DNA from: Candidatus Saganbacteria bacterium
Lineage (GTDB): Bacteria > Margulisbacteria > WOR-1 > O2-12-FULL-45-9
Length of the DNA stretch: 64,000 nucleotides
Direction: 5' to 3'
Assembly: GCA_016932255.1 (NCBI GenBank)
Contig: JAFGDE010000019.1
Coordinates: 8,614 to 72,613, forward strand
Position numbers and translations under genes: made by a program. The notes beneath the pieces are model-generated. The model ran no database searches, had not been told where the DNA came from, and worked only from the letters and a program-made list of their open reading frames with translations. Positions 7,709-56,214 of the stretch are shown in pieces (the stretch's first letter is position 1; each line of letters starts with the position of its first letter).

Positions 7709-8842
7709 CTACTGGCTATACTGGATCTCCAGTACAGGATAATTGACGCCGTTCTCCAGGCTCAGGATAACGACCGTGCCGTCCTCCGTGCCTTCCTGAA
7801 GTATGGCCAGGCCGTAATTCGTGGCCGTGCCGGTAAGCCAATCAGCCACCAGATCATTGAGCTCATCCGAGCGCAGGTTGTTGTACTCGCCGCTGTCAAA
7901 GTCCTGGCCCGTAAGATATTCCCCGACGCTGGGCCTGGCTCCCCAGGTGGTCGTGCCGGTGAACGGACTGGTCAGCTTTTTGAGTTGCAATATCGAGCTG
8001 CCTGTGCTGCTGGGATAGATCATCAGCGTTGCTGATTCAACGCTCGCCCCGCTTGGGAGCGTGCTTATATCAAAATAAAGATAGGTCTCGAATTGATCGC
8101 CGCTGAGGCTGACATAGCCGGCCTTGAGCGAAGTGTCGCTGCCGTGATAACTGCCGGGATCGTTCATTTCCACGTAGGTATCGGTCTCGACCGTGATCTC
8201 CACAACGTAGCCTTCGATGGTCACGATCGCCTCACCGCTGACCTCACCGGAGGCACAGAAGATCGTCGCCGTGCCCTGGGCGCTGATCTCCAGCGTGGCG
8301 GTCGTGCCGCTGTAGCTTAAACTGCCGATACTGTCGCCGGACAGCGACCAAACAGGGCTGATGGCCATGGCCTCGCCGGAACCGCTGTAGCCGACCGAAT
8401 TAAAGACCTGGCTTTGATTGACGCGCAGGTTGACTGAATCAGGCATAATATAAATAGAGGCCAGGCTTTCGGCAGTGCTGCCGCGGACCGTAACTGCGGC
8501 CGCCCCGCTTAAGCCGCTGTAGGCCGCGTTCACTGTGCCGCTGCCCTCGGCCGAGGCAGTGAACAAGCCGGAATAACCGACCCTGAGGACCGTGCCGACC
8601 TCCCCGGAAACGCTCCAGGTCGCGACCACCGCGCCGGTCGACCCGTCGGAGTAATCAGCGTAGGCAGTAAAGGTCTGACTGCCGCCGACCTCAAGGGTAG
8701 CGGAACCTGGCTGGACATTGATGCCGGTCAAGGTCTTAGTGCTGTCTTCTGATGATTCACCGCAGCTGTAAAGTACAACTGAAAAAGTAACCAGGCAGGA
8801 CAGCAGGATATAGCTCAGGATAATCTTGCGCATGTCTGACAA
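7709..8842 (-). CDS. Secreted lipoprotein with tandem Ig-like (Big_2-type) repeats and a DNRLRE-like C-terminal domain
   Basis: 377 aa. Signal peptide with lipobox LYSCG. Three repeats of the type VQPGSATLEVGGSQTFTA...WSVSG. C-terminal segment DTYVE...ETYLYFDISTLPSGASVESATLMIYP. Confidence 0.7.
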   Translation of the reverse strand: MSDMRKIILSYILLSCLVTFSVVLYSCGESSEDSTKTLTGINVQPGSATLEVGGSQTFTAYADYSDGSTGAVVATWSVSGEVGTVLRVGYSGLFTASAEGSGTVNAAYSGLSGAAAVTVRGSTAESLASIYIMPDSVNLRVNQSQVFNSVGYSGSGEAMAISPVWSLSGDSIGSLSYSGTTATLEISAQGTATIFCASGEVSGEAIVTIEGYVVEITVETDTYVEMNDPGSYHGSDTSLKAGYVSLSGDQFETYLYFDISTLPSGASVESATLMIYPSSTGSSILQLKKLTSPFTGTTTWGARPSVGEYLTGQDFDSGEYNNLRSDELNDLVADWLTGTATNYGLAILQEGTEDGTVVILSLENGVNYPVLEIQYSQ

Positions 8843-26492: not shown

Positions 26493-27603
26493 TGACCTCG
26501 TCTCCTTTATAAAATACCATAGACTGACCAGGAGTTATTGCTAACTGAGATTCTTTAAAAATTAACCGGGCTCTGGGCCTGCCTGCCGGACAGGCAGGTT
26601 CTAGGTGCTGGGTGCTGGGTGCTGGGACCAGCATCGCAGCAGCCTCCGGCGAATTATAGCGTATCTTGGCCATGACCGCCAAATCCCCCTCAGGTATACT
26701 GCCGGAAATATAATTGATCTCTTCAGCCGCAAGCTCCGTGCCCATGACATCCGCCTGGTCGCCGATAACGACCTGGTTCTTCTGCGGGTCGAGCCTGACA
26801 ACGTATTTGGGCCGTCCCTGGTAATGGCCAATGCCTTTGCGCTGGCCCAGCGTATAGAAACAAATGCCTTCGTGCTGGCCGACGACTTTGCCCTGCTGGT
26901 CAACAATATCGCCCGAGCGGACAGCCTCGGGACACTGCAAACGCAAAAAAGCCCCGTAATCATCATGATCGATAAAACAGATCTCCTGGCTCTCAGCTTT
27001 ATCATGCACTGATAGACCGAGCTCTTTGGCTTTCTTCCTAATCTCCTCCTTGGTCAGCTCACCCAGCGGGAATAAGGTCCGGCTCAGCCTGGCCTGATCA
27101 AGAACATAAAGAAAATACGACTGGTCTTTTTTCGGATCCTTGCCCTTTAACAATTTATAAATAACATGACCTTCATTCTTCATTCCGCACCTGCCTGCCG
27201 GCAGGCAGGATTCTTCATTCTGCATTATCCTCGCATAATGCCCCGTAGCTAACTTCTCCGCTCCCAGCTCTTTAGCTTCCTGCCAGAGCAGATCGAACTT
27301 GATCTCGCGGTTGCAGCGGATACAGGGATTGGGCGTTCTGCCCTGTTTATATTCATTGATAAAAACATCCACGACCTTCTGCCTGAACTCATCGCTCAGG
27401 TCAAAGACATGATGCTCGATGCCCAGCTTGTCTGCGACCTTTTTGGCTTCACGCGCTGCCTGGTCTTTGCCCGGCCAAACGATCATGGTCACCCCGATGA
27501 CCTCATGGCCCTGCTCTTTGAGCAAAGCAGCGGCCGTGGACGAATCAACCCCGCCGGACATGGCTAGAGCGACTTTTTGCCTGTTTTTAATGAAATTGCT
27601 CAT
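26458..27603 (-). CDS. mnmA: tRNA 2-thiouridine(34) synthase MnmA carrying two in-frame repeat-derived insertions
   Basis: 381 aa with PP-loop VALAMSGGVDSS, NPCIRCN, ATGHYAR, KDQSYFLY and ITPGQSMVFY. Two extra segments are encoded by repeat DNA (26578-26627 and 27170-27230). Confidence 0.9.
   Translation of the reverse strand: MSNFIKNRQKVALAMSGGVDSSTAAALLKEQGHEVIGVTMIVWPGKDQAAREAKKVADKLGIEHHVFDLSDEFRQKVVDVFINEYKQGRTPNPCIRCNREIKFDLLWQEAKELGAEKLATGHYARIMQNEESCLPAGRCGMKNEGHVIYKLLKGKDPKKDQSYFLYVLDQARLSRTLFPLGELTKEEIRKKAKELGLSVHDKAESQEICFIDHDDYGAFLRLQCPEAVRSGDIVDQQGKVVGQHEGICFYTLGQRKGIGHYQGRPKYVVRLDPQKNQVVIGDQADVMGTELAAEEINYISGSIPEGDLAVMAKIRYNSPEAAAMLVPAPSTQHLEPACPAGRPRARLIFKESQLAITPGQSMVFYKGDEVIGGGLISSKDK
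26578..26627. repeat. Palindrome variant plus 8-bp satellite inside mnmA
   Basis: CCTGCCTGCCGGACAGGCAGG (a 21-bp variant with a central A) followed by TTCTAGGTGCTGGGTGCTGGGTGCTGGGA. It reads in-frame as ...PAPSTQHLEPACPAGRPRA.... Confidence 0.85.
27170..27230. repeat. Type-C arm split by the 20-bp palindrome, inside mnmA
   Basis: CCTTCATTCTTCATTCCGCA + CCTGCCTGCCGGCAGGCAGG (27190-27209) + ATTCTTCATTCTGCATTATCC. It reads in-frame as ...MQNEESCLPAGRCGMKNEGH.... Confidence 0.85.
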
Positions 27604-39240: not shown

Positions 39241-40175
39241 TATTCCTTAAATAAAGCTGTGCTGAGATAGCGCTCGCCTGTGTCAGGCAAAAGCACCACG
39301 ATCATCTTGCCTTTGCTCTTGTTCTGAGCGGCCAGCTTAACTGCCGCGGCCACTGCCGCGCCCGAGGAGATGCCCGCGAGGATACCCTCGTCCCTGGCCA
39401 GTCTCCTGGCCAAGACAAAAGCGTCCTCATCACTGACCTGGACGATCTCGTCAATGATCTTGCGGTTCAAAACGTCCGGCACAAAGCCAGCGCCAATGCC
39501 CTGGATCAGGTGCGGCCCGGCCGGATCTCCCGAGAGCACCGCGGAAGCTGACGGCTCGACTGCCACGATCTTGATGCTTTTCTTTTTCTTCTTCAGGGCT
39601 TCGCCAACACCGGTAAGCGTGCCACCGGTGCCGACCCCGGCCACGAAGATATCGACTTTACCTTCCGTATCCTGCCAGATCTCTTCAGCCGTGGTCTGGC
39701 GATGGGCTTCAGGATTGGCCGGGTTCTTGAACTGCTGGGGCATGAAAGAATTTCTGGTCGTTTTGAGCAGTTCTTCCGCCTTATCGATGGCGCCCTGCAT
39801 GCCTTTAGCGCCTTCGGTCAGCACGATCTCAGCGCCAAAAGCTTTTAACAGGTTGCGCCGCTCAAGGCTCATGGTCTCGGGCATTGTCAGAATTAATTTA
39901 TAGCCGCGCGCCGCACAGACAAAGGCCAGCCCGATGCCGGTATTGCCCGAGGTCGGTTCGATTATAGTCGCGCCTTCACAGATCCTGCCCTCAGCCTCAG
40001 CCGCGTCGATCATGGCCAGGCCGATCCGGTCTTTGACACTGCCGCAGGGATTGAACGACTCCAGCTTGGCAATGACCAAAGCGCCGGCGCCGTCGGTCAC
40101 CTTACTCAGCCTGACCAAGGGCGTCTTGCCGACCAGTTGAGTGATATCTTTGGCTATGCCTGTCATTTGCCTCAC
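39240..40175 (-). CDS. cysK: Cysteine synthase A (O-acetylserine sulfhydrylase)
   Basis: 311 aa with [13 protein letters not shown] (PLP lysine), [10 protein letters not shown] and [10 protein letters not shown]. Confidence 0.9.
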
Positions 40176-40176
40176 C

Positions 40177-40587
40177 TCATATATTATACGTGAACGTCTT
40201 CTGGGTGCTCTTGAACAGCAGGTCTTCCATGGTCGTCTGCTTCAATCTCTGCCTGAGCGACTCCTGGAGGCCGGTAAAAAGATCGAACAATACCGGCACT
40301 TTCTGCATTTTTTTGCCGGCCAGGTCGATCTGACCGTCCAGGACCTCGATCACTTCCAGCACTGAGACATCCGACGGGTGCTTGGCCAAACTGTAGCCGC
40401 CTTCTTTGCCGCGCCAGCTGGTCAAAAGGTGCCGCCGCTTTAGCAGCAGCAGCAATTGTTCGAGATATCGCACCGGCACTTTCTGCGCTTTGGCAATATC
40501 CCTGATCTGCACCGGCCCGCTGTTGTACAACCTCGCGAGTTCGATCATTGCCTGGAGACCGTATTGTACTTTAATTGAAAAGTTCAT
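40177..40587 (-). CDS. Rrf2-family regulator (no Cys cluster; CymR-like position upstream of cysK)
   Basis: 136 aa with [12 protein letters not shown]...[17 protein letters not shown]...GKEGGY. Confidence 0.8.
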
Positions 40588-40602
40588 TGTACATCTTTGC
40601 TC

Positions 40603-40651
40603 GGAACCTGCGGCCTGCCTGCCGGCAGGCAGGGTTCACTCGCAGGTTTCC
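40603..40651. repeat. Filled type-B hairpin in the 5' region of the Rrf2-cysK operon
   Basis: GGAACCTGCGG-CCTGCCTGCCGGCAGGCAGG-GTTCACTCGCAGGTTTCC. Confidence 0.9.
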
Positions 40652-40705
40652 TGGTAACCTATTATCGTTATTTCCTGTCCAAATGTCCAGCTTATTATAC
40701 ACTAT

Positions 40706-40724
40706 CTTGATTGAGTTAGTCAAG
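40706..40724. promoter_or_regulatory. Imperfect palindrome, candidate Rrf2 operator
   Basis: CTTGATTGAGTTAGTCAAG. It shares the half-site TTGACTAA (reverse strand) with the operator at 31029-31051. Confidence 0.35.
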
Positions 40725-40733
40725 TATTAGCTT

Positions 40734-40767
40734 AAAATAAAGGGCCCGGACTTGGCCCAGGCCCTTT
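40734..40767 (-). terminator. Rho-independent-like terminator after the ferredoxin gene
   Basis: On the minus strand: a GC stem AGGGCC...GGCCCT followed by TTTATTTT, just downstream of the stop at 40777. Confidence 0.5.
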
Positions 40768-40776
40768 AGCTAATGT

Positions 40777-40968
40777 TTAAGAAACCTTGATGGATGAGGT
40801 CGGGCAGCTGTCGGCCGCTTCCCGGACCGCATCCTCGTTCGCGTTCAAGTCAGCGCCGGCCTTGACCTGGGCCTTGCTGTCCCCCATCTCAAAGACGTCC
40901 GGGGCAGTGGTCTCGCACAGGCCGCAGACCGTGCAGTTATCATCGATAGTCACTTTTGTGATCGCCAT
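40777..40968 (-). CDS. Small single-cluster ferredoxin
   Basis: 63 aa. MAITKVTIDDNCTVCGLCETTAPDVFEM...ADSCPTSSI is the typical Cys pattern of 7-kDa ferredoxins. Confidence 0.8.
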   Translation of the reverse strand: MAITKVTIDDNCTVCGLCETTAPDVFEMGDSKAQVKAGADLNANEDAVREAADSCPTSSIKVS

Positions 40969-41080
40969 TCAGTTCACCTCCTGGGTTTTTGTATTTATTC
41001 TCAATTGCCGCTTTAAGTCTAACACAGGCACCCTGAGCCTAGTCAAGCCCCCAAAAAAGAAACTCCGAGACCCCGACCAT

Positions 41081-41145
41081 GGGGAAAAATGCAGAATGCC
41101 TAATGAAGAATGCAGAACTGTGGGGTGCCTACGGCACATTATTTA
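41081..41145. repeat. Type-C element left arm with a UNCG-loop hairpin
   Basis: GGGGAAAAATGCAGAATGCCTAATGAAGAATGCAGAACTGTGGG-GTGCCTACGGCAC-ATTATTTA. Confidence 0.8.
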
Positions 41146-41502
41146 ATGGATATTCTTTGCTTTGAAGAGGATGCTGCCTATTATTCTGATAAGTTCTTCA
41201 CTTTCAGCTAGTATTTGGGCAAATCCTTTCACATTATCGCCTATCATGCCAGCACCACGAATGACCTTTAGCCAATAGTTCGTTTCCATAATCTCTTTTT
41301 TAGCTATATTTACCTTGTTAATAAAATCCTTTTTTGACGAAGCTGCGTCAGCCTCACTCATGTTCGCGCCAACTGAAGACGCTGACCTTAACTATTGCAC
41401 TGCGATCACGCGGTCTTTAGTGCTCTTGCTCAACAATCTGCACAGCTTCACTATTCTAATACTTAAAACCAATAAGCGATCATGAATATCAATACTTTTC
41501 AT
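41143..41502 (-). pseudogene. Four-helix-bundle protein (23S rRNA IVS protein / Avd family) interrupted by an in-frame TAG
   Basis: The frame from the ATG at 41502 reads MKSIDIHDRLLVLSIRIVKLCRLLSKSTKDRVIAVQ-stop(41392-41394)-LRSASSVGANMSEADAASSKKDFINKVNIAKKEIMETNYWLKVI.... The QLLRSxTSVGAN and E..YWL motifs of the family span the stop. TAG terminates other genes here. Confidence 0.75.
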
Positions 41503-41530
41503 AAATAATTCCCATTTTCAAATAATATGG

Positions 41531-41566
41531 CATTAATTCGTCATTCTTCATTCTGCATTATAATAA
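41531..41566. repeat. Type-C element right arm
   Basis: CATTAATTCGTCATTCTTCATTCTGCATTATAATAA, inverted relative to the left arm at 41081. Confidence 0.75.
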
Positions 41567-41629
41567 GCAGCAATCTTATTGCCAGCAAATCTCCTCAAAG
41601 AAGAGGCTAAATCGACAGGATCACGACAG

Positions 41630-41658
41630 TTGACATTAAAACCCGCCAGTGCCACAAT
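41630..41658 (+). promoter_or_regulatory. Promoter positioned for a leaderless CPBP transcript
   Basis: TTGACA (41630-35), 17 nt, CACAAT (41653-58), then 7 nt to the ATG at 41666. Confidence 0.55.
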
Positions 41659-41665
41659 ACCTGCC

Positions 41666-42487
41666 ATGAAATACAGACCTTGGGTTTTTATAGTCGCGGT
41701 TCTCCTGTTCAGCTGGCTGGTCCAGATCGTATTATTCACTGGAATGCTGCCGGCCAACCTGCTTATTCTCTACATGTTCGCTCCGGCGCTGACCGCTTTT
41801 ATTTTCTTTGTCCTGTTCAAGACTCCCTGGCGCGAGCAATTGGACCTATTCATCAGGCGGATCGATCTCTGGTCGATCGTTTTTGCCTTTTTCTACCCGT
41901 TCTTCTGGCTGAGCCTTGTGCTGCTGGTCGCGGTCTTGACCGGTCTGGGCCAGTTCAACGCCTCTTTTCTCTCAAAAGCCCTGGCCTGGCCATTCATCTC
42001 GTCATTCCTGATGCTGGTTGTCTTTGCTTTCCCCACGATGTGGGGGGAGGAATACGGCTGGCGCGGGTATTTACTGCCCGGGCTGGTGGAGCGCTACGGC
42101 AAACTTAACGCCACGCTTATATTAGGTCTGGTCTGGGGCTGCTGGCACATCCCGTCCTATTATATCCTTTACAGCCAGGCGGGGCTGGGCCAGCCGGTAT
42201 TATTAACTATAACGGGGATCCTGACGGTCGCGGTCGGCGCGTTCCCTTACACGTATCTATTCTACCGGACCCGCAATATCATTCCCTGCGTCCTGCTGCA
42301 CGCGGCCTACGACCTCGCCTCCGGGCACATATTCTTCGGCACGCCGGCTATTCCCGGGTTTACCGACGGCACTCCCGGCCTGGTAATGATGCCCTGGCCC
42401 ACAGCGATGATGCTATTGATCGTGACCGGCGCGGTATTAGCTGGAGGTTTTGTGTTCTTATTTGGCAAGGAGGCAAAGGGGACTTGA
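41666..42487 (+). CDS. CPBP (CAAX/Abi) family intramembrane glutamic endopeptidase, copy 1
   Basis: 273 aa, polytopic, with the catalytic motifs [12 protein letters not shown] and HAAYD. Confidence 0.8.
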   Translation: MKYRPWVFIVAVLLFSWLVQIVLFTGMLPANLLILYMFAPALTAFIFFVLFKTPWREQLDLFIRRIDLWSIVFAFFYPFFWLSLVLLVAVLTGLGQFNASFLSKALAWPFISSFLMLVVFAFPTMWGEEYGWRGYLLPGLVERYGKLNATLILGLVWGCWHIPSYYILYSQAGLGQPVLLTITGILTVAVGAFPYTYLFYRTRNIIPCVLLHAAYDLASGHIFFGTPAIPGFTDGTPGLVMMPWPTAMMLLIVTGAVLAGGFVFLFGKEAKGT

Positions 42488-42879
42488 CCCGCAAAACTTT
42501 CTTAACCGCCCTGCTCTTCTGGTTCATCCTGGCTGTGCTGGCCAATATTAACGGCCTGGTCCGCAACTTTGGTTACGGCCCGTATGTGGGCGAGCAGGCC
42601 GCGCATCAGTTAAGCACTGTAATATTCTGCATCCTGATCCTGCTGGCGACATACGTAATGGTCAAGTTGGCCAGGCCGGCGCGGGCTGAACTTATCTGGA
42701 TCGGGATCTTCTGGCTCGTGGCCACGATCGCTTTTGAATTCCTGTTCGGCCACTATGTGGTCGGCCATTCATGGGAGCACTTATTGGCTGATTATAATAT
42801 TCTCAAAGGCCGTGTGTGGGGAATTGTTCTGCTGGTGACCTTATTGGCGCCGTTAATAACAGGGGAGTTTGTGAAATGA
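42484..42879 (+). CDS. Integral membrane protein, unknown function
   Basis: 131 aa with a TTG start overlapping the upstream stop and four hydrophobic helices. Confidence 0.5.
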   Translation: MTRKTFLTALLFWFILAVLANINGLVRNFGYGPYVGEQAAHQLSTVIFCILILLATYVMVKLARPARAELIWIGIFWLVATIAFEFLFGHYVVGHSWEHLLADYNILKGRVWGIVLLVTLLAPLITGEFVK

Positions 42880-43154
42880 AGATAAAGTTACGTGCCGTTG
42901 TCGCGATATTGCTGATCGGTTTCTGGCTGGCGGCCTTTTTGACCGGCTATCTGGTCTGGCTCGCCCCTTCCGGCCCGCGCTCAGGCTGGAACATCCTGGC
43001 TTTTAGCCTGATGAAGAAAGAGTGGATCTCTATCCACTTCTGGGTCAGCATCATTGCCACTCTTCTCACTGTGGTGCACATGTTCCTCGATTGGGGAGCT
43101 CTCAAGTCCTGCGTAAAGTATTTGTGTAGTACAAAGAGGGAGACGTTGGGCTAG
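42876..43154 (+). CDS. Small membrane protein (DUF4405-like pattern)
   Basis: 92 aa from MKIKLRAVVAILL (ATGA overlap), with HFWVSIIATLLTVVHMFLDW. Confidence 0.5.
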   Translation: MKIKLRAVVAILLIGFWLAAFLTGYLVWLAPSGPRSGWNILAFSLMKKEWISIHFWVSIIATLLTVVHMFLDWGALKSCVKYLCSTKRETLG

Positions 43155-43193
43155 GTCTTTCCCCTACTGGCGCAGCCAGCGGGTGATAAAAAA

Positions 43194-49859: not shown

Positions 49860-50984
49860 CTACCAGTTGACCGCGCCGGGATACAGGATATCGATCACCT
49901 GCTTGGTCAAATGGATCGTGTGGCCGTACTGGTTGCTGGCATTGTTGCTCAGACAGACGATCGTTGCTTTTTGGGCGGGCAAATAATACATGTCCGTGTT
50001 ATAACCTTCGATCTCGCCGTTATGCCCGATCAAGCCCAGTAAATTAGCTATGCCCAGGCCGTACTCGAACTTGCCGCCTGAGCCTTGCAAAACATTCCAG
50101 GTCAGTCGCGCCGCCTGCGTCTCCGCGCTCAATAAAGTCCCAAAATAAAGCGCCTCCACCCAGGTCCTCAGATCAGAGATGGTCGAGATCATGCCGCCGC
50201 TGGTCCACGGGCCGGACGGGCTCTGGATCGAAACATCGGTCAGCTCGCCAACACCCAGCGTTGCCATATTATTGTAGCCGTGACAGTACGGGTCAGGCAT
50301 GCCCGTACCTGCGGGAAAAGAAGTGCCGGCCAGGCCCAGGCGGTCAATGATCCTGGTCTTGATCTCGTCCTCGGCCTTATTGCCGGTCAACCGCTCGATC
50401 ATCAGGCCCAGCAGATAATAGTTGCTATTGGAATATTTACAGGCTGTCCCAGGCTCAAAATCTGCCGGCTGGTCGTTGATCAGGGCCATGATCTCATCGT
50501 GCGTCCAGACCCGGGTGATATCAGCGTAATAAAGCCGGTTAAATTCAGCGGAATTGACCAGATCATAAATACCCGCGGTCATGGCCAGGACCTGGCGGAC
50601 CGTGATACGGTCAGCATTGGTGATCTCAGGGAAATAAGCGTCAATGGTCGCCTCAAAACTTATCCTGCCCTCTTCGATCAGCTGCAGCATCACCGTAGCG
50701 GTAAAGGTCTTGGTAATGCTGGCAATGCGGAAATGGTCGCCTGCCTCCACCGCGCGGCCGGTCTCCAGATCAGCCTTGCCCCGCACCAGGATAAATGGCT
50801 CCTTGCCCTCTTCCCAGACCCCCAGGATCACCGCTGGGACATTATAAGTGAGCATGAAGCCGCTGACCGCGTCATTGATCAGGGCCCGCTGTGAACCAGT
50901 GATATCATTGAGATTATTTTCAGCGCAAGAAACATTAAGGGCGATCAGCAGAGCGAACATTAAAATGAACAGCATGTTCTTCAT
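49860..50984 (-). CDS. Secreted serine hydrolase, beta-lactamase/DD-peptidase (class C-like) family
   Basis: 374 aa with a signal peptide, the SxxK motif (ASITKTFTA) and YSNSNY. Confidence 0.8.
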   Translation of the reverse strand: MKNMLFILMFALLIALNVSCAENNLNDITGSQRALINDAVSGFMLTYNVPAVILGVWEEGKEPFILVRGKADLETGRAVEAGDHFRIASITKTFTATVMLQLIEEGRISFEATIDAYFPEITNADRITVRQVLAMTAGIYDLVNSAEFNRLYYADITRVWTHDEIMALINDQPADFEPGTACKYSNSNYYLLGLMIERLTGNKAEDEIKTRIIDRLGLAGTSFPAGTGMPDPYCHGYNNMATLGVGELTDVSIQSPSGPWTSGGMISTISDLRTWVEALYFGTLLSAETQAARLTWNVLQGSGGKFEYGLGIANLLGLIGHNGEIEGYNTDMYYLPAQKATIVCLSNNASNQYGHTIHLTKQVIDILYPGAVNW

Positions 50985-51042
50985 AGTGCATCAATCATAA
51001 TAATATCCGCGCTGGAAAACAAGCTGTTTAGGCTGAAAAGCC

Positions 51043-51070
51043 TTGAAGCGGCTTTATAAAAGTGTACAAT
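51043..51070 (+). promoter_or_regulatory. Promoter for CPBP copy 2 (leadered)
   Basis: TTGAAG, 16 nt, TACAAT, then a 20-nt leader with AGGAGG before the ATG at 51091. Confidence 0.5.
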
Positions 51071-51090
51071 ACGCCCAGGAGGCGATCATC

Positions 51091-51888
51091 ATGCAAATAA
51101 AATGGAAAGAGATCTTCTGGTTCAGCTTCCTGGCTTACCTGTTCACCTGGATCTACTGGCTCAGCGCGCTCTGGACCAAAAGCCCCAACCACCCCTTTTA
51201 CTCCGTGCCGTTCATCGGCGAAGGCCTGGGCATGTTTGGCCCCATGTTGGCTGCCATGGCCATGCGCGCCTGGGTCAGTAAAGAAGGCTTTAAGGGCTCG
51301 CTCGGTCTAACACGCCCGATCAAGTTCTATCTGATCGCCTTCTTCGCCCCACTGCTCTTCGTCCTCTTCCTGATCATCTTTAACCAAATAACCGGCCTGG
51401 GCCGCTTTGACTGGGTCTTTAACGTGCCCCTGGCCAGAATGATCCCCATTGCCATCGGCCTGATCTTCCTGTTCATCCCCCTGGGCCTGGGCGAAGAATA
51501 CGGCTGGAGAGGCTACCTTTTGCCCAGAGTCCTGCCGCTGGGAGAAGTTAAAGGAACTATCCTGCTGGGAATAATTTGGGCGCTCTGGCATCTGCCGGTC
51601 CTGACCCTTAGGCCCGGAGCCCTCTGGCTCAGCATCCCGCTCTTTACCGCGGCCGTGATCTTATTGGCTTTTCCCTTTACCTGGCTGTTCCGCGCGGCCG
51701 GGGCCAGCGTGCTGGTCGTCTCGCTCTTCCACAGCGCCTTCGACGTCTGGGGTGATTTCTTCACTTCAGCCATCGCCTACCCGGGCCAGGACCAGTTGAT
51801 CGTGGGCGCCGGCGGCGTGGTCAGCATGGCCATGATGGCGGTGATCGTCGTCCTGGCTTACTCGGTGTTCAAAAGGCCTACCGGCTGA
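51091..51888 (+). CDS. CPBP (CAAX/Abi) family intramembrane glutamic endopeptidase, copy 2
   Basis: 265 aa with [12 protein letters not shown] and HSAFD, polytopic. Confidence 0.8.
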
Positions 51889-52037
51889 CCCCCTGCCACA
51901 AACCGAGATCGCCGGCTTGAGCGCGCAACAGTTAAGAAGCGATCGGCCGGGCAAAATGTGGGGGTGTTCCAATGACGGTCTGGGGTAAAATCTGCGGCCT
52001 GATCCTGCGCTCAGCAACAGCTGCTTCCCTGGTCAGA

Positions 52038-52691
52038 TCAACCTCTCGCCGCGTGCCTGACAAAACCCATCACGCGGATCTCGACCTGCAGAGGATCGAG
52101 CAGGATGTCGGATATCCCCCGGTGACTGCCGGATCCTGTCCAGTAGTCGTCCAGCATCTTCTGAAACTGGCCTCGGCCAGCACGCAGCAGCCACCTCTGG
52201 TTCTCAATAAGATAGTCAAAAGTATTGCGGTCCAGCCAGCGGACCGGCAAGCGGCCTGAGCTCAACGCCTGCGGCCGCAGCGCTACCTCGAGCTCAAAGA
52301 CCTCGCCGAACCTGGCCGCGTCCTCAGGCGAGGTCGTGGTATAAACAGAGGTCAAGCGGGACGGCGAATCAGGGCAGTTCTTCTGCCGGTATTTCTCAAG
52401 CTGCTCTTCCATCGGTAAGTATTTGAACATAGGAGCTTGCTGCTCAGCGGTCGCAGCGTAAGGCCTGGCATATTCCTGCCCCGGCTGGGGCAAATGGTTG
52501 GGGCTAAATCCTGAGTATAGCACAACCCTGCAGCCCTGGCGCAAACGATCCAGCAGCTCAGCTTCATTGCGCAGTGACGAAATGTGGACCCTGAGGCCGG
52601 AAATGAGCGGACGCCAGGCCGGGCGGACAGACCGTTGCGCAGGCAGCGGCGGCGGTTGGCACGGCACTCTCATTGGTGCTGAAGTTCTCAT
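52038..52691 (-). CDS. Duplicated hypothetical protein, short copy (no TM region)
   Basis: 217 aa. It shares MRTSAP.RVP, the upstream leader DNA and the C-terminal domain (CPDSPSRLTSVYTTTSPEDAARFGEVFELEVAL...PVRWLDRNT...GISDILLDP) with 43194-44072. Confidence 0.55.
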   Translation of the reverse strand: MRTSAPMRVPCQPPPLPAQRSVRPAWRPLISGLRVHISSLRNEAELLDRLRQGCRVVLYSGFSPNHLPQPGQEYARPYAATAEQQAPMFKYLPMEEQLEKYRQKNCPDSPSRLTSVYTTTSPEDAARFGEVFELEVALRPQALSSGRLPVRWLDRNTFDYLIENQRWLLRAGRGQFQKMLDDYWTGSGSHRGISDILLDPLQVEIRVMGFVRHAARG

Positions 52692-52821
52692 CAGATATAT
52701 ATCGATAAAAAAGCAGAAAAATTGCAGTTAGCCCCGAATATCTTACAGCTTATTATGCCACGAAGTGACACATTGTCCGTATCTCAGATACAAGATTGCG
52801 GATTTAACCCTCCCGCGCAGC

Positions 52822-54081
52822 TCAAATATTCTTATCCAGCCAGTTATATATCTTTTCCGAAGAGATCAGCAGCGCGCCCATCTGACAATGCTCCTCCGCC
52901 CCCTCTTCAGCCGTGAACAAAAGATATGTCTTGGGGCATTTCAGGGCATTGTACAGCTTGATCGCCTGCCCCGGCATGTCCTTGTCCTCCGCAGAATCGA
53001 CCACCAGCATTTTACATTTGATCTTCGCCGCCACGTCCTTCAGCGTATAAGGCCGGGTCATTTTGATCAGCTCGGTCGGGCTCTTGGCCCGGAAAGTGAA
53101 CATGCCGTTCTCAAAGACCCAGCGCAAACCCGGGTCCTGCTCCATCCTGGTATAAATATCCTGATCGATCGCTTTGGCCGCATTTGGATCGTCAAGCTCC
53201 TTTTCAAAACCAGCCGGCGCGTGCGCCACAAAATTAGCATGGAAATCATAGACCCCACCGTTGGCTATGCACGCCTTGAGCCTCGGCTCAAAAGCCGCTG
53301 CCCGGGGAGCCAAATAGCCGCCAAAACTTATCCCCATCAGCGCGATGCGTTGAGGGTCCACTTCCGGCCGGGTCAGCGCGAAATCGACCACCGGCGTTAC
53401 GACCTTTTCCCAGTCCGGCCGGAAAGGGAGCTGCTGCACCCGGATAACTTCCCCCTGCCCCGGCCCCTCGAACAACAAACAGTTATAGCCGCGCTGGAGC
53501 GCCGGCAAAGCCACCGTGTAATAAAGCTCTTCCTGAGTGCCGTCAAACCCGGTGTGGATGATGACCAGCGGGCGCTTTTTTCCGGAATTATCGGCCAGAC
53601 AGTAATAACCCGGCAGAGCGGTCTTCCCATACTGGATCTTGACCGGCAAAACGATCGGCCGGTCGATCAGGCTGACCGATCTTAGGAAAGTATCCCGGCT
53701 CTTGCGCCAGGTCTTGAGGATGCGGGGATCATTCGGATTGCCATGCAGGAAGAATTCAGCTGTGCGATAGTAATTGGAGGCCCGCAGCAACGCCTCCGAT
53801 GCGCTCAGCCTATGCCCCTGGGCCAGGAATTTATTCCCGGCCGTTTCCAGCTCATTGGCGGTCTTTGACCACTCCCGATACCACCCCTCCTCATCCCCTG
53901 CCTTGATCCGATAAGCGGTCTTGAAACACTCGCTAATGTCTGCGGCGCCGTAAACTGATTCTCCCAGCGTCCGCAGGAGCTGGAACGAATACTGCGGATC
54001 GTCATAATAGACCTTGAGGGCGAAGACCGGCAGGGCCAGGAGGACGAGCAGTAAAACAAGCGGGATAATATATCGTTTCAT
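52822..54081 (-). CDS. Secreted alpha/beta hydrolase
   Basis: 419 aa with a signal peptide and the nucleophile elbow GISFGGY. The helical N-terminal lid region is unassigned. Confidence 0.75.
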   Translation of the reverse strand: MKRYIIPLVLLLVLLALPVFALKVYYDDPQYSFQLLRTLGESVYGAADISECFKTAYRIKAGDEEGWYREWSKTANELETAGNKFLAQGHRLSASEALLRASNYYRTAEFFLHGNPNDPRILKTWRKSRDTFLRSVSLIDRPIVLPVKIQYGKTALPGYYCLADNSGKKRPLVIIHTGFDGTQEELYYTVALPALQRGYNCLLFEGPGQGEVIRVQQLPFRPDWEKVVTPVVDFALTRPEVDPQRIALMGISFGGYLAPRAAAFEPRLKACIANGGVYDFHANFVAHAPAGFEKELDDPNAAKAIDQDIYTRMEQDPGLRWVFENGMFTFRAKSPTELIKMTRPYTLKDVAAKIKCKMLVVDSAEDKDMPGQAIKLYNALKCPKTYLLFTAEEGAEEHCQMGALLISSEKIYNWLDKNI

Positions 54082-54099
54082 GAAGGTATTATAGCAAAT

Positions 54100-54212
54100 A
54101 AATGCCTAACTATTGTGTGCCTTCGGCACATTATTATAATGTCCGCCTTAGGCGGACACCACAATTCCTCATTCTTCATTCTGAATTCTGCATTCTGAAC
54201 CCCGCATTATCC
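54100..54212. repeat. Type-C element (truncated left arm, UUCG hairpin, full right arm)
   Basis: AATGCCTAACTATTGT-GTGCCTTCGGCAC-ATTATTATAATG-TCCGCCTTAGGCGGA-...CATTCTTCATTCTGAATTCTGCATTCTGAACCCCGCATTATCC. The right end supplies the arsC stop codon. Confidence 0.85.
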
Positions 54213-54605
54213 ATAAAGCCCTTTGAACAGCTCTTCTATCCTTGTTCTCAGGTCATCCCTGACCTTGCGAAAAACATCGATGGGCAGGCCGATGGGGTCT
54301 TTGATCTCCCAGTTGATCCTTTGCTTGGCCGGAATGGCCGGACAGGTCTCGCCGCAGCCCATGGTCACGAGTACGTCAACTTCCTTGACCGGCAGGTCCA
54401 TGAATCCCTTGGAATACTGGCCTGAAATATCGATGCCGACCTCAGCCATGGCCGCGATCGCCTCAGGATGGACAAACCCGGCGGGGTTTGAGCCCGCCGA
54501 GTAGATCTCGAACTTATCGCCGGCTAATGAGCGGCCAAAACCCTCAGACATCTGCGACCGGCAGCAATTCCCCACACAAGCGAAAAGGATCTTCTTTTTC
54601 GCCAT
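54207..54605 (-). CDS. arsC: Arsenate reductase, LMW-PTP (thioredoxin-coupled) type
   Basis: 132 aa with the P-loop ILFACVGNCCRSQMSEG. Confidence 0.85.
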   Translation of the reverse strand: MAKKKILFACVGNCCRSQMSEGFGRSLAGDKFEIYSAGSNPAGFVHPEAIAAMAEVGIDISGQYSKGFMDLPVKEVDVLVTMGCGETCPAIPAKQRINWEIKDPIGLPIDVFRKVRDDLRTRIEELFKGLYG

Positions 54606-54658
54606 TATAAATAATGGCTCCTCAATTCTTCATTCTGCATTCCGCATTCTGCATTAAC
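54606..54658. repeat. Type-C right arm between the rubrerythrin and arsC genes
   Basis: ATTATAAATAATG...CAATTCTTCATTCTGCATTCCGCATTCTGCATT. Confidence 0.8.
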
Positions 54659-55237
54659 TCAGTAGTTCTCCGCCAATAGCTCATAGTACGCCTGCGGATG
54701 CTTGCAGGCCGGGCAAATATCGGGCGCTTCATTCCCCTCATGCACGTAACCACAGTTGCGGCAGTGCCATTTGACCTTCTTGTCGCGCTTGAACGCGATG
54801 CCTTCCTTGATGTTCTTGAGCAAGGTCCGGTAGCGTTTCTCATGCTGCTCCTCGACCTCAGCGATCTCCTTGAACTGGACCGCGATCTCTTCAAAGCCCT
54901 CTTCGCGGGCGACCTTCTCAAAGTCTGAATAGAGCTTAGTCCATTCCTCTTTCTCGCCTTCAGCCGCGGCCTCCAGGTTCTGCTCGGTCGTGCCGATGAT
55001 CCCGGCCGGGTACATGGCGCTGATCTCGACCGCGCCGCCCTCTAAATACTTGAAGAAGCGCTTGGCATGCTCCTTTTCGTTGTCAGCGGTCTCAAGGAAT
55101 ATAGCCGCGATCTGTTCATAGCCCGCTTTCTTGGCCACACCCGCGAAATAGGTGTAGCGGTTGCGGGCCTGCGACTCCCCGGCGAACGCCTTTAATAGGT
55201 TCTGCTCCGTTTTGCTGCCTTTAACACTTTTAGCCAT
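54659..55237 (-). CDS. rbr: Rubrerythrin
   Basis: 192 aa. Ferritin-like diiron motifs (E..EH twice) plus a C-terminal rubredoxin-like CRNCG...CPACK. Confidence 0.9.
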   Translation of the reverse strand: MAKSVKGSKTEQNLLKAFAGESQARNRYTYFAGVAKKAGYEQIAAIFLETADNEKEHAKRFFKYLEGGAVEISAMYPAGIIGTTEQNLEAAAEGEKEEWTKLYSDFEKVAREEGFEEIAVQFKEIAEVEEQHEKRYRTLLKNIKEGIAFKRDKKVKWHCRNCGYVHEGNEAPDICPACKHPQAYYELLAENY

Positions 55238-55254
55238 GATCGATATCCCCTTTC

Positions 55255-55416
55255 TTAAGCTGTTTTCTCGAACTGGTCCTTGCTGGCCCCGCAGACCGGA
55301 CAGACCCAGTTGTCCGGCAGGTTCTCAAAAGCCGTGCCCGGCTTGATGCCTGAGTCAGGATCGCCCTTGGCCGGGTCATAGATATAGCCGCAGATCTTGC
55401 ATTCGTATTTATCCAT
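55255..55416 (-). CDS. Rubredoxin (not in the supplied ORF track)
   Basis: My reverse-strand translation is [53 protein letters not shown] (53 aa), with the canonical CxxCG...CPxCG. Confidence 0.9.
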
Positions 55417-55421
55417 GATAA

Positions 55422-55805
55422 CTACCCCTTCTTGTGCAGCCAGAGGCCGTGCACATTGCAGTATTCGCGCGCTGAAACGCTTGCGCCGGTCACTTCAAAG
55501 AAAGCCTCGGGCTTCTCTCCCGGTTCCAGGAACTGGCGATAGGCTTTGTTGTCGACCAGCAGTTCGATCCATTCGATATAATGTTTGGCTTCCATGGGAT
55601 GGGCAACTTCGCCGATTTTGACCAGATAACCGTTGCCCTGGTCCTCGATCACCGGCACGTGCTTTTCCTTGGCCGCGTCCACCGTATTCTCTTCAATTAA
55701 TTTCATCGGCTGGCCGCAGCAGACCAGATCACCCTTGCCGCTGTGGAGCACTTCCACAATATTGCCGCAGATCTCGCACTTATAGACGCCTAATTGCTTC
55801 GCCAT
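55422..55805 (-). CDS. dfx: Desulfoferrodoxin (2Fe superoxide reductase)
   Basis: 127 aa. N-terminal desulforedoxin CEICGN...CCG, then the SOR domain KHVPVIE...[11 protein letters not shown]...CNVHGLW. Confidence 0.9.
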
Positions 55806-55809
55806 AACC

Positions 55810-56214
55810 TTACCTCCTGTGGCATTTTTTGCACAAACCTATTAAGTAGACCCGGACCTCCTCGACCTTATTGCCCTGCACCTCCTTCTTCAGACAGGGA
55901 CATTCAATATCTTCCAGATCAATGACCTGGCCGCACTTGCGGCAGAGAAAATGCGAATGCGGCTCAGTGACAGGGTCATATCTTACACCCTGGCCCGAGA
56001 TAGTCAAATCAGCCACCAGGGCTTTTTCCACCATCAGTCTGAGGGTATTGTAGATGGTCGTTTTGGAAATGGTCGGCATCTCCCTGACCAGCGCGTCATA
56101 GATCATGTCGACTGAGGGGTGGTCGTGCCTGCCCTCAAGATATTTCATGATCCTGAGCCGCTGCTGCGACGGCCTGATGCCCTTGTCTTCAAACCTTTCC
56201 TGTAATGATTTCAT
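55810..56214 (-). CDS. perR: Fur-family peroxide regulator (PerR-like)
   Basis: 134 aa. Winged helix, HSHF, and two CxxC pairs (CRKCG, CKKCH). It heads an oxidative-stress operon. Confidence 0.8.

Follow-up and report, generated by a model that had tools for sequence, protein, structure and literature searches.

A TAG-interrupted four-helix-bundle gene enclosed by opposed heptamer arrays in a Candidatus Saganbacteria genome

The element described here lies within positions 41081-41566 of a 64,000-nucleotide stretch of Candidatus Saganbacteria DNA (positions 8,614 to 72,613 of contig JAFGDE010000019.1, assembly GCA_016932255.1; hereafter the window). Between inverted arms built from tandem seven-nucleotide units of the class AATKNNN, it encloses a gene of the PF05635/TIGR02436 four-helix-bundle family that is interrupted by one in-frame TAG. 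The element is very probably an insertable cassette of the general build of a ribosomal RNA intervening sequence (IVS), in a copy that was inactivated recently, the type-C hairpins found nearby being the same structure without the gene module. The account favoured below, taken as a whole, is considered rather probable, although its parts are held with different strength.

For the present copy the outcome is modest: the gene broke recently, and it lies in a repeat-rich, accessory part of an uncultured Saganbacteria genome. The locus displays gene-bearing and gene-less forms of one hairpin family side by side, and it touches on two puzzles that are decades old, namely the role of the open reading frame (ORF) inside 23S rRNA intervening sequences, and the reason why bacterial genomes hold many 7-base tandem repeats, often as opposed pairs. 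Comparison with intact relatives shows that a given protein subfamily is accompanied by its repeat word, which turns both puzzles into one testable proposition, concerning binding of the word and an effect on array gain, loss or processing. If true, such a reader system would account for an orphan protein family as well as for the excess of 7-nt repeats in cyanobacteria, Xanthomonas, Geobacter, Bacteroidota and the Candidate Phyla Radiation (CPR).

Anatomy of the gene-bearing element

On the gene strand, the order of components is putative promoter, AATKNNN array, leader, gene, AT-rich half-core, GC hairpin and opposed array. The individual features are as follows.

41569-41584, minus strand: sigma-54-type -24/-12 motif TGGCAATAAGATTGCT, 9 nt 5' of the arm on the gene strand, with canonical GG-N10-GC spacing
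41532-41559, minus strand: 5' arm of the gene strand, an AATKNNN array reading AATGCAG AATGAAG AATGACG AATTAAT
41521-41530, minus strand: AT-rich half-core, AATAATATGG on the plus strand and CCATATTATT on the gene strand; 5' half of the apex core, collinear with the gene-less cores
41503-41520, minus strand: 18-nt leader TGAAAATGGGAATTATTT, part of the gene module and missing from gene-less copies
41143-41502, minus strand: TAG-interrupted four-helix-bundle ORF (PF05635/TIGR02436), identified by profile scores, structure model and Foldseek
41392-41394, minus strand: in-frame TAG at Leu37 within the DQLxRS helix, where the alignment has a Leu that is near-invariant in the family
41138-41142, minus strand: half-core, ATTAT on the plus strand and ATAAT on the gene strand, where the hairpin's G extends it to ATAATG; 3' half of the apex core
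41125-41137, minus strand: GC hairpin GTGCC-nnn-GGCAC (GTGCCTACGGCAC on the plus strand; the GTGCCGAAGGCAC module; GTGCCGTAGGCAC after the ORF)
41118-41124, plus-strand reading: 7-nt connector
41088-41117, plus-strand reading: left array of the heptamer AATKNNN, AATGCAG AATGCCT AATGAAG AATGCAG AA
41088-41124, minus strand: 3' arm of the gene strand (reverse complement of the array, plus connector), recognized by array pattern and arm pairing

The paired arms comprise 24 nt at 83% complementarity and lie 424 nt apart. The window contains 13 occurrences of the pattern (AATKNNN)x3-AAT, where 0.00 would be expected. The original prediction, made from the sequence alone, had placed a 360-bp four-helix-bundle gene between inverted arms, and both its coordinates and its description proved correct. 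This gene is the only ORF of the element, which encodes no transposase. A 23S rRNA insertion site was considered and ruled out: the element is flanked by a ferredoxin gene and a CPBP protease gene, and no Rfam match was found within 40000-56000.

The four-helix-bundle gene and its in-frame stop

The minus-strand ORF (41502..41143) consists of 119 codons followed by TAA, with the single in-frame TAG at 41392-41394 (translation MKSIDIHDRLL...AVQ-(TAG)-LRSASSVGANMSEADAASSKKDFINK...KAKNIH). With the TAG masked, it scores 66 bits with PF05635 of Pfam (cut-off 33.8) and 83.9 bits with TIGR02436 of NCBIfam, 'four helix bundle protein' (cut-off 24); apart from these profiles, it matches two weak 'hypothetical protein' subfamilies of NCBIfam and no others. 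The AlphaFold (AF2) model of the read-through protein has a predicted local distance difference test score (pLDDT) of 93.9 and helices at residues 6-24, 28-52, 57-83 and 94-117. Its closest solved structure according to Foldseek is 2RLD (Bacteroides BT_0352), an entry with five chains, with a template modelling (TM) score of 0.83-0.91, 39% identity and a sequence match at an E-value of 3.8e-27; 2GSC (Xanthomonas Xcc0516) is matched at TM 0.80-0.85. Profiles, modelled fold and structure search thus agree on the predicted family. The median isoelectric point of the subfamily proteins is 9.4.

The family had also been connected with Avd, the accessory protein of diversity-generating retroelements (DGRs), and this holds as far as a distant relation of the fold. 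Avd (PDB 4DWL, 8UB7) is a basic, ring-forming four-helix bundle that binds nucleic acid and reverse transcriptase. The protein encoded here, however, is much closer to the non-DGR structures 2RLD and 2GSC, below which the DGR Avd chains rank with TM 0.63-0.78 and 14-16% identity. PF05635 members are known to occur near DGR reverse transcriptases (PMC10053308). A search of the whole assembly (1.67 Mb, ~90% complete) with the reverse transcriptase profile PF00078 gave no match, and the identity of the gene as a DGR accessory is therefore ruled out.

The TAG takes the place of Leu37 in the segment DQ-L-IRS, a position occupied by Leu in at least 90% of 30 aligned sequences. All 31 invariant residues of the alignment are kept in the broken copy, which, together with the near-invariance of the lost Leu, fits a recent single-base change. 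The same base is found in a contig of an independent Logan assembly (run SRR13394437) that is 100% identical and probably stems from the same sample. Recoding of TAG could be ruled out, since none of the 40 tRNAs of the genome carries a CUA anticodon and TAG is an ordinary stop: it ends 219 of 1099 long ORFs genome-wide (20%) and, in agreement with the original prediction, the genes at 43194, 47500 and 55422 of the window. The gene is most likely a recent pseudogene, which had been proposed as the simplest reading.

Association of the gene family with heptamer arms

The genome holds three TIGR02436 genes. Opposed heptamer arrays enclose all of them, and the word differs from gene to gene: GAATGCA/GAATGAA here, GGGATGA/GGGACGA (GGGAYGA) at C18:129219 and GATCAGA at C30:14349. 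For comparison, 190 family loci were fetched from the phylum, metagenomes and GTDB genomes, and each was given a flank score, defined as the best local (Smith-Waterman) alignment of the upstream flank with the reverse complement of the downstream flank, with a threshold of 14. This score was preferred because hairpin censuses based on Tandem Repeats Finder (TRF) or on strict seeds undercount imperfect arms. The threshold was reached by 149 of the 190 family loci, with period 7 in 138 and period 8 in 11. Ten of 1473 ORFs of the genome reached it as well, only one of them with period 7, and this lone control is the gene 44424-44750, which sits between two separate hairpins (E1 and E2, described below). 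As 149 of 190 family loci stand against 1 of 1473 ORFs, enclosure by such arms is characteristic of the gene family and no coincidence. Period-8 arms (GGnATCnA) are seen in a distinct subgroup of the family's genes within the phylum (L007, L010, L011, L013, L020 and L022).

A protein search returned ~40 relatives at 57-77% identity, and the DNA around 29 relatives at 53-78% identity, corresponding to ~25 distinct loci after the merging of duplicate contigs, was inspected. Every relative with both flanks intact on its contig is armed with words of the AATKNNN class (AATGCCT, AATGCCG, AATTACG, AATGAAG, AATGACG). The inner layout of these loci comprises an array, a connector of the type AAyTnnGGT, sometimes a GC hairpin, an AT-rich leader, the gene, ATAATAAtG, the GTGCCGAAGGCAC hairpin and the opposed array. 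The nearest relative, L197 (78%), has almost identical units and the same promoter motif; its protein (P0001) is annotated from a start within the arm, MQNEEL corresponding to ATG CAG AAT GAA GAA TTA. Intact copies with the same arms, which the original prediction had suggested looking for, thus exist at ~25 loci; the two other family genes of this genome are armed with other words. Since the relatives carry the same kind of arms, an unexplained protein family is tied to 7-base repeats.

These data also bear on the possibility that an unrelated gene has come by chance to lie between two independent half-elements. Half-elements do occur in the window (E3 and E5, below), and the ordinary gene 44424-44750 provides an example of a location between separate hairpins. 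Such a coincidence is nevertheless scarcely credible: intact relatives elsewhere show the identical layout, and the armed paralogues and the family-wide scores likewise contradict it and speak for the single element with inverted arms that had been predicted.

In the C18 paralogue, the ORF (C18:129080-129660) reads on through the right arm, which carries an inserted CAGCGAGCGAAGCGAGCGG, while the C30 ORF (C30:14250-14760) has no in-frame start after the left arm and would begin inside the array. The arms can thus be translated as N- or C-terminal extensions.

Gene-less copies and decay of the cassette

Five further structures in the window, none with an assigned strand, have the arms or half of them and lack the gene.

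44258-44378: E1, gene-less type-C hairpin composed of array, core TCATATCATTATAATGAC, 30-nt GC hairpin and opposed array
44815-44945: E2, gene-less type-C hairpin in which two inner GC hairpins flank the core ATTATTATAATG
54100-54208: E4, gene-less, with a one-unit left arm, two GC hairpins, core and full right arm
48842-48903: E3, left half only, with array, GTCGCTGCGCGAC hairpin and core; other sequence replaces the right arm
54603-54655: E5, right half only, with core CATTATAAATAATG and array

The short copies E1, E2 and 54100-54212 of the original prediction are confirmed; the distance between their arms is 50, 66 and 53 nt, respectively. E1, E2, E4, C4:46387-46480 and C12:399-509 have in common the arrays, small GC hairpins and the apex palindrome CATTATTATAATG, and the GC hairpin module at 41125-41137 recurs in E2, E4, C4:46387-46480 and most intact relatives. 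Gene-less copies fold far better than shuffled sequences (z of -2.6, -5.6 and -3.7 for E1, E2 and E4, respectively, and -6.3 for a fourth copy). When 41143-41520 (378 nt, i.e., the 18-nt leader and the 360-nt ORF) is removed from the gene-bearing element, CATTATAATAATATGGCATTAATTCGTCATTC results, which matches CATTATAATGATATGACATTAATTCGGCATTC of E1 at 29 of 32 positions across the apex. Owing to this collinearity, the gene can be said to occupy the hairpin apex as a discrete block. At the level of sequence, the comparison would be compatible either with insertion of the gene at the apex or with its deletion from the copies that are now gene-less.

In-frame stops are present in the copy described here and in seven other family loci with a single stop each (L066, L069, L098/L101, L116, L160, L189 and L194), nonsense-broken copies constituting ~4% of the family sample. 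In L056 (1-400), which belongs to the same subfamily, the gene lacks its last third, the inner hairpin is missing as well, and the right arm directly adjoins what is left; this locus is an intermediate between the gene-bearing and gene-less forms. Nonsense, truncated and gene-less copies together make up a decay series.

The original prediction regarded the short copies as derivatives in the style of MITEs, or miniature inverted-repeat transposable elements, with capture of the gene as cargo between the arms as the alternative. The common arms, GC hairpins and core bear out the kinship of the two forms; the term itself is an analogy only. There is no transposase in the element, and no target-site duplication was seen at the compared outer boundaries of the gene-bearing element, E1, E2, E4, C4 and C12. 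The type-C termini, whose alignment had been suggested as a check, are arrays of a 7-nt word that vary in unit number and sequence, rather than fixed terminal repeats. The related explanation, that MITE-like elements are moved in trans by a transposase encoded elsewhere (e.g., one of the two Y1/RAYT-like genes) and have captured the four-helix-bundle gene as cargo, is very improbable. It could draw on the presence of two Y1 transposases in the genome, on 132 nt shared by E1 and E2 at 90% identity and on the clustered as well as dispersed distribution of the copies. However, the Y1 genes are flanked by quite different palindromes and not by heptamer arrays, the boundaries and arms are unlike transposase-defined ends, and the armed design recurs across phyla and genomes irrespective of their insertion sequence (IS) content.

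Of the two Y1 (IS200/RAYT-like) genes, C16:21335-21679 has on its flanks REP-like hairpins GGAACCGCGAGGTTCACTCGCAGGTTCC as well as one copy of the 20-nt palindrome described in the last section, and C14:37897-38244 has CCCCACACTGAAGTGTGGGG. They likely constitute, with their palindromes, a REP/RAYT system (repetitive extragenic palindromes and their associated tyrosine transposase) separate from the heptamer arrays.

E1 and E2 remain similar beyond the right arm, up to the ATG with which two unrelated genes begin. Their common stretch (44379-44426 and 44946-44993) contains TTGACG-N17-GAAAAT/GAAGAT ~6 nt before the start codon, and looks like an outward promoter for leaderless mRNAs that would be delivered with the hairpin. 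In E3, the sequence past the core (within 48842-48960) reads TTCGGAT TTCTGAT CTAGGAT, units of another word family, and E3 is either a chimeric hairpin or a recombination scar. Pairing of the E3 left arm with the right arm of E4 or E5, as a composite element of 5.3-5.7 kb, was also considered; after its core, E3 runs into this unrelated array.

Repeat word and protein subfamily

Among 127 non-redundant period-7 loci, the distance between arm words rises steadily with the distance between proteins (Spearman 0.45, Mantel p = 0.001), from 0.28 at less than 20% protein divergence to 0.61 at more than 80%. The subfamily of the present gene (at least 50% identity) is accompanied by AAT[GT]NNN words, its Bacteroidota-rich sister cluster by AATTAAT and AATTGAT, and other Margulisiibacteriota subfamilies by TAAGCTG, GTTGCCA, CAGGGGA or the period-8 word GGnATCnA. 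The word class is kept across phyla at 36-45% protein identity. In 65 genomes of the class, the median number of (AATKNNN)x3-AAT matches is 36 with a subfamily gene and 11 without (p = 5e-5), and 41 and 16, respectively, within the order (p = 0.003), a cross-genome comparison that is confounded by shared descent and by the incompleteness of metagenome-assembled genomes. Other classes of the phylum have almost no such matches.

A census of the present genome with TRF (period 7, at least 2.9 units) yielded 136 period-7 arrays of about a dozen word families: GGGTTCT (33 arrays), type C (23, and 4 of AATGACA), TCGAAAA/TAGAAAA (21), GGGAYGA (12), GTAGCCW (8), AAGACCR (7) and several smaller families. 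Hairpins with periodic arms have period 7 in 22 cases and any other period in at most 6. A family gene is present in the assembly for the type C, GGGAYGA and GATCAGA words only.

Such an abundance of arrays might suggest that the gene is a passenger: the host would make and keep heptamer hairpins as slippage-generated regulatory or structural repeats, and a small mobile ORF would move by gene conversion from one hairpin to another of like sequence and have no effect on them. Hairpins without the gene are far more numerous than those with it, many words lack any gene, the gene module is a discrete apex block, and neither a transposase nor a target duplication goes with it; moreover, arrays without such a gene are found in Xanthomonas/Nostoc (PMC4692102), Beggiatoaceae (PMC4679880) and Geobacter (PMC2700814). 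A mere passenger is, however, quite unlikely. One protein family is the only cargo found, with none of the 1473 other ORFs here inside a heptamer hairpin and with the same family recurring in many phyla. The word class is conserved at the low protein identities given above, and arrays are three times commoner where the subfamily is present.

Genomic sites of the cassette

The cassette is located downstream of glnA in L053, L055 and L120, a site that is empty in this genome. On the three separate contigs L066, L074 and L123, a cassette armed with AATGACT is found immediately upstream of a tRNA gene, and the cassette of L197 adjoins a metallophosphatase gene. In G106 and G109, which belong to the same family as this genome, the ferredoxin orthologues are on contigs other than those with the cassettes. 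These differing gene contexts, together with the empty glnA site, indicate that the cassette moved during the divergence of related genera. The neighbouring CPBP protease has no orthologue in 15 other genomes of the family, and since the ferredoxin orthologues are off the cassette contigs, no exact empty site is definable at the present position; the glnA-downstream site is the only informative comparison of filled (elsewhere) and empty (here). Within this genome, 13 of 34 (AATKNNN)x3-AAT matches are concentrated in a 14-kb part of the window, an accessory region where CPBP protease modules are duplicated and a defence island is located.

Putative promoter and pairing of the arms

The sigma-54-type motif has 2 matches in the window against 0.03 expected. 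It is found unchanged at the same position in L197 and as close variants in L021, L024, L054, L080 and L018; with at most one mismatch, it is present at 7 of 167 armed loci, compared with ~0.5% of control windows. RpoN is encoded in the genome (321 bits). A sigma-70-like reading, CTGGCA-17-TATAAT, overlaps the motif. By either reading, a start predicted at the edge of the arm would put arm, gene and arm on one RNA.

Genome-wide, there are ~20 sigma-54-type motifs of the form TGG[CT]AAnnnnnTTGCT; six of them are no more than 40 nt away from a period-7 array, where 0.14 would be expected. Sites of the motif include 41569-41584 (-) and 44188-44203 (+) in the window, C4:46364, C19:60025, C25:82203 and C25:147581, among others. 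Hairpins of the GGGTTCT type adjoin the -24 box on its 5' side, and those of type C the -12 box on its 3' side.

Transcribed arms might function in the RNA, as in an intervening sequence. According to this explanation, the arms form a double-stranded stem that is cut by RNase III, which would release or silence the mRNA and separate the flanking transcripts, the gene-less copies being processing or terminator hairpins and the protein either incidental or acting on RNA. The design resembles that of the S23p-encoding 23S IVS of Coxiella burnetii, where tandem heptamers (GACAGAT) lie in a 28-bp stem upstream of a family ORF and RNase III cuts at the first repeat (Warrier et al. 2016, PMC4990558). 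In addition, the promoter motif abuts the arm, so that the arms would be transcribed; they pair in minimum free energy and centroid folds alike; rnc (RNase III) is present in the genome; and the apex GC hairpin followed by the T-rich core resembles a terminator. The whole element, however, folds no better than shuffled sequences (z = -0.7).

The arms themselves give no sign of selection for pairing beyond the common word. Across 136 arm alignments (4613 pairs, 629 mismatches), an excess of G:U is absent on either strand (94 G:U-type versus 109 A:C-type mismatches), and 68% of the mismatches are transversions. Nor is the order of units mirrored between the arms, the best-register identity being 0.789 observed and 0.778 shuffled (p = 0.15), in a comparison whose power is limited by the 4-6 units per arm. 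The ~80% complementarity of the arms is explained by both drawing on one word pool in opposite orientation, not by unit-for-unit mirroring, and the arms are better read as opposed arrays of a recognition word than as a stem refined by selection for pairing. An RNA-level module would also leave the tracking of subfamily by word and the presence of in-frame arrays inside genes unexplained, and it is on balance unlikely.

A proposed mechanism for gene and arrays

In the account favoured here, the protein would recognize the 7-nt word of its own arms, being basic and probably a ring-forming oligomer like 2RLD. Gene and arrays would then be the two parts of a selfish or semi-selfish system whose layout recalls that of a RAYT gene between REPs, the protein contributing to the maintenance, expansion or spread of arrays that belong to its word class. 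Dispersed hairpins without the gene have the same arms and apex, and the gene module might be copied into them, or lost from them, by recombination; recombination between like hairpins would explain the missing target duplication and transposase. The cassette would be transcribed from the promoter at the arm edge, with the arms consequently in the RNA and able to fold. This mechanism, i.e., recognition of the arm word, a pair comparable to REP/RAYT in layout and not in chemistry, and movement of the module between like hairpins, is plausible at somewhat less than even chances.

Several observations, in addition to the confounding of the cross-genome array counts, weigh against this account. 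The correlation between protein and word is weak within the subfamily (r = 0.20, p = 0.046). About 60% of the 136 arrays are built of words such as GGGTTCT, TCGAAAA and GTAGCC, to which no family gene in the assembly corresponds, and genomes without the subfamily hold up to 54 matches of the AATKNNN pattern. Arrays therefore need no resident cognate gene, and they can persist, and perhaps arise, without one. Filled and empty sites were not seen among close strains, and the protein family is not known to have an enzymatic activity. A strict model of one protein per word was also considered; it fails in this genome, where most words lack a family gene.

Relation to known systems

The closest parallel is with the ORF-bearing 23S rRNA intervening sequences of Leptospira and Coxiella, which have the same protein family in the loop and terminal inverted repeats able to form a stem. 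Tandem arm heptamers that vary in number, decay of the ORF in some copies and a size of ~430-490 nt are further common traits. Unlike these intervening sequences, the cassette lies outside rRNA and is provided with a promoter motif of its own at the edge of the arm; many gene-less hairpins built of its word occur alongside it, and its arms are only ~80% complementary. ORFs annotated as 23S_rRNA_IVP are also reported from rRNA insertions in CPR bacteria (bioRxiv 10.1101/2024.02.27.582315). The original prediction expected a link between the protein family and a short-repeat family to be new. It is not wholly so, because the stem heptamers of the Coxiella IVS are already in print; a full-text literature search by family identifiers returned no general account of armed cassettes outside rRNA.

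Heptamer tandem repeats as such are well documented. They include, with convergent pairs, GGGAATC in Xanthomonas and GGGGAYT in Nostoc (Rehm et al. 2015, PMC4692102), TAACTGA in Beggiatoaceae (MacGregor 2015, PMC4679880) and GGGACCG and MTYCTGA in Geobacter (PMC2700814). In the first two papers, searches turned up no S23, four-helix or intervening-sequence genes. The arrays described here share with such repeats their mostly intergenic 7-nt units, frequent opposed pairs, several words per genome and small palindromes nested in the arrays; they differ in that one word class encloses a four-helix-bundle gene and follows its subfamily. Cyanobacterial short tandemly repeated repetitive (STRR) sequences with nested small dispersed repeats are reportedly the subject of work by Elhai et al. 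from 2008.

Another similar arrangement is that of REP/REPIN-RAYT systems (Bertels and Rainey 2011, PMC3116915), in which one small gene lies between inverted copies of a repeat, and many further copies of this repeat are scattered through the genome as gene-less hairpins. RAYT is a Y1 HUH enzyme, whereas the protein here is a four-helix bundle that lacks a nuclease motif; the place of fixed palindromes is taken by tandem arrays of a short word, and these persist in genomes without the gene. A broader proposal is that PF05635 proteins are sequence-specific readers, perhaps propagators, of heptamer arrays, each subfamily being tuned to a word class (here AATKNNN), so that cassettes, gene-less hairpins and 23S intervening sequences would be one system. 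This generalization is speculative and, at present, doubtful.

An array inside a reading frame

A type-C array also occurs in frame within the reading frame of mnmA (27171-27226; CTTCATTCTTCATTCCGCA ... ATTCTTCATTCTGCATT), which points to events at the DNA level. It is split by the 20-nt palindrome CCTGCCTGCCGGCAGGCAGG, present in 23 copies in the genome.

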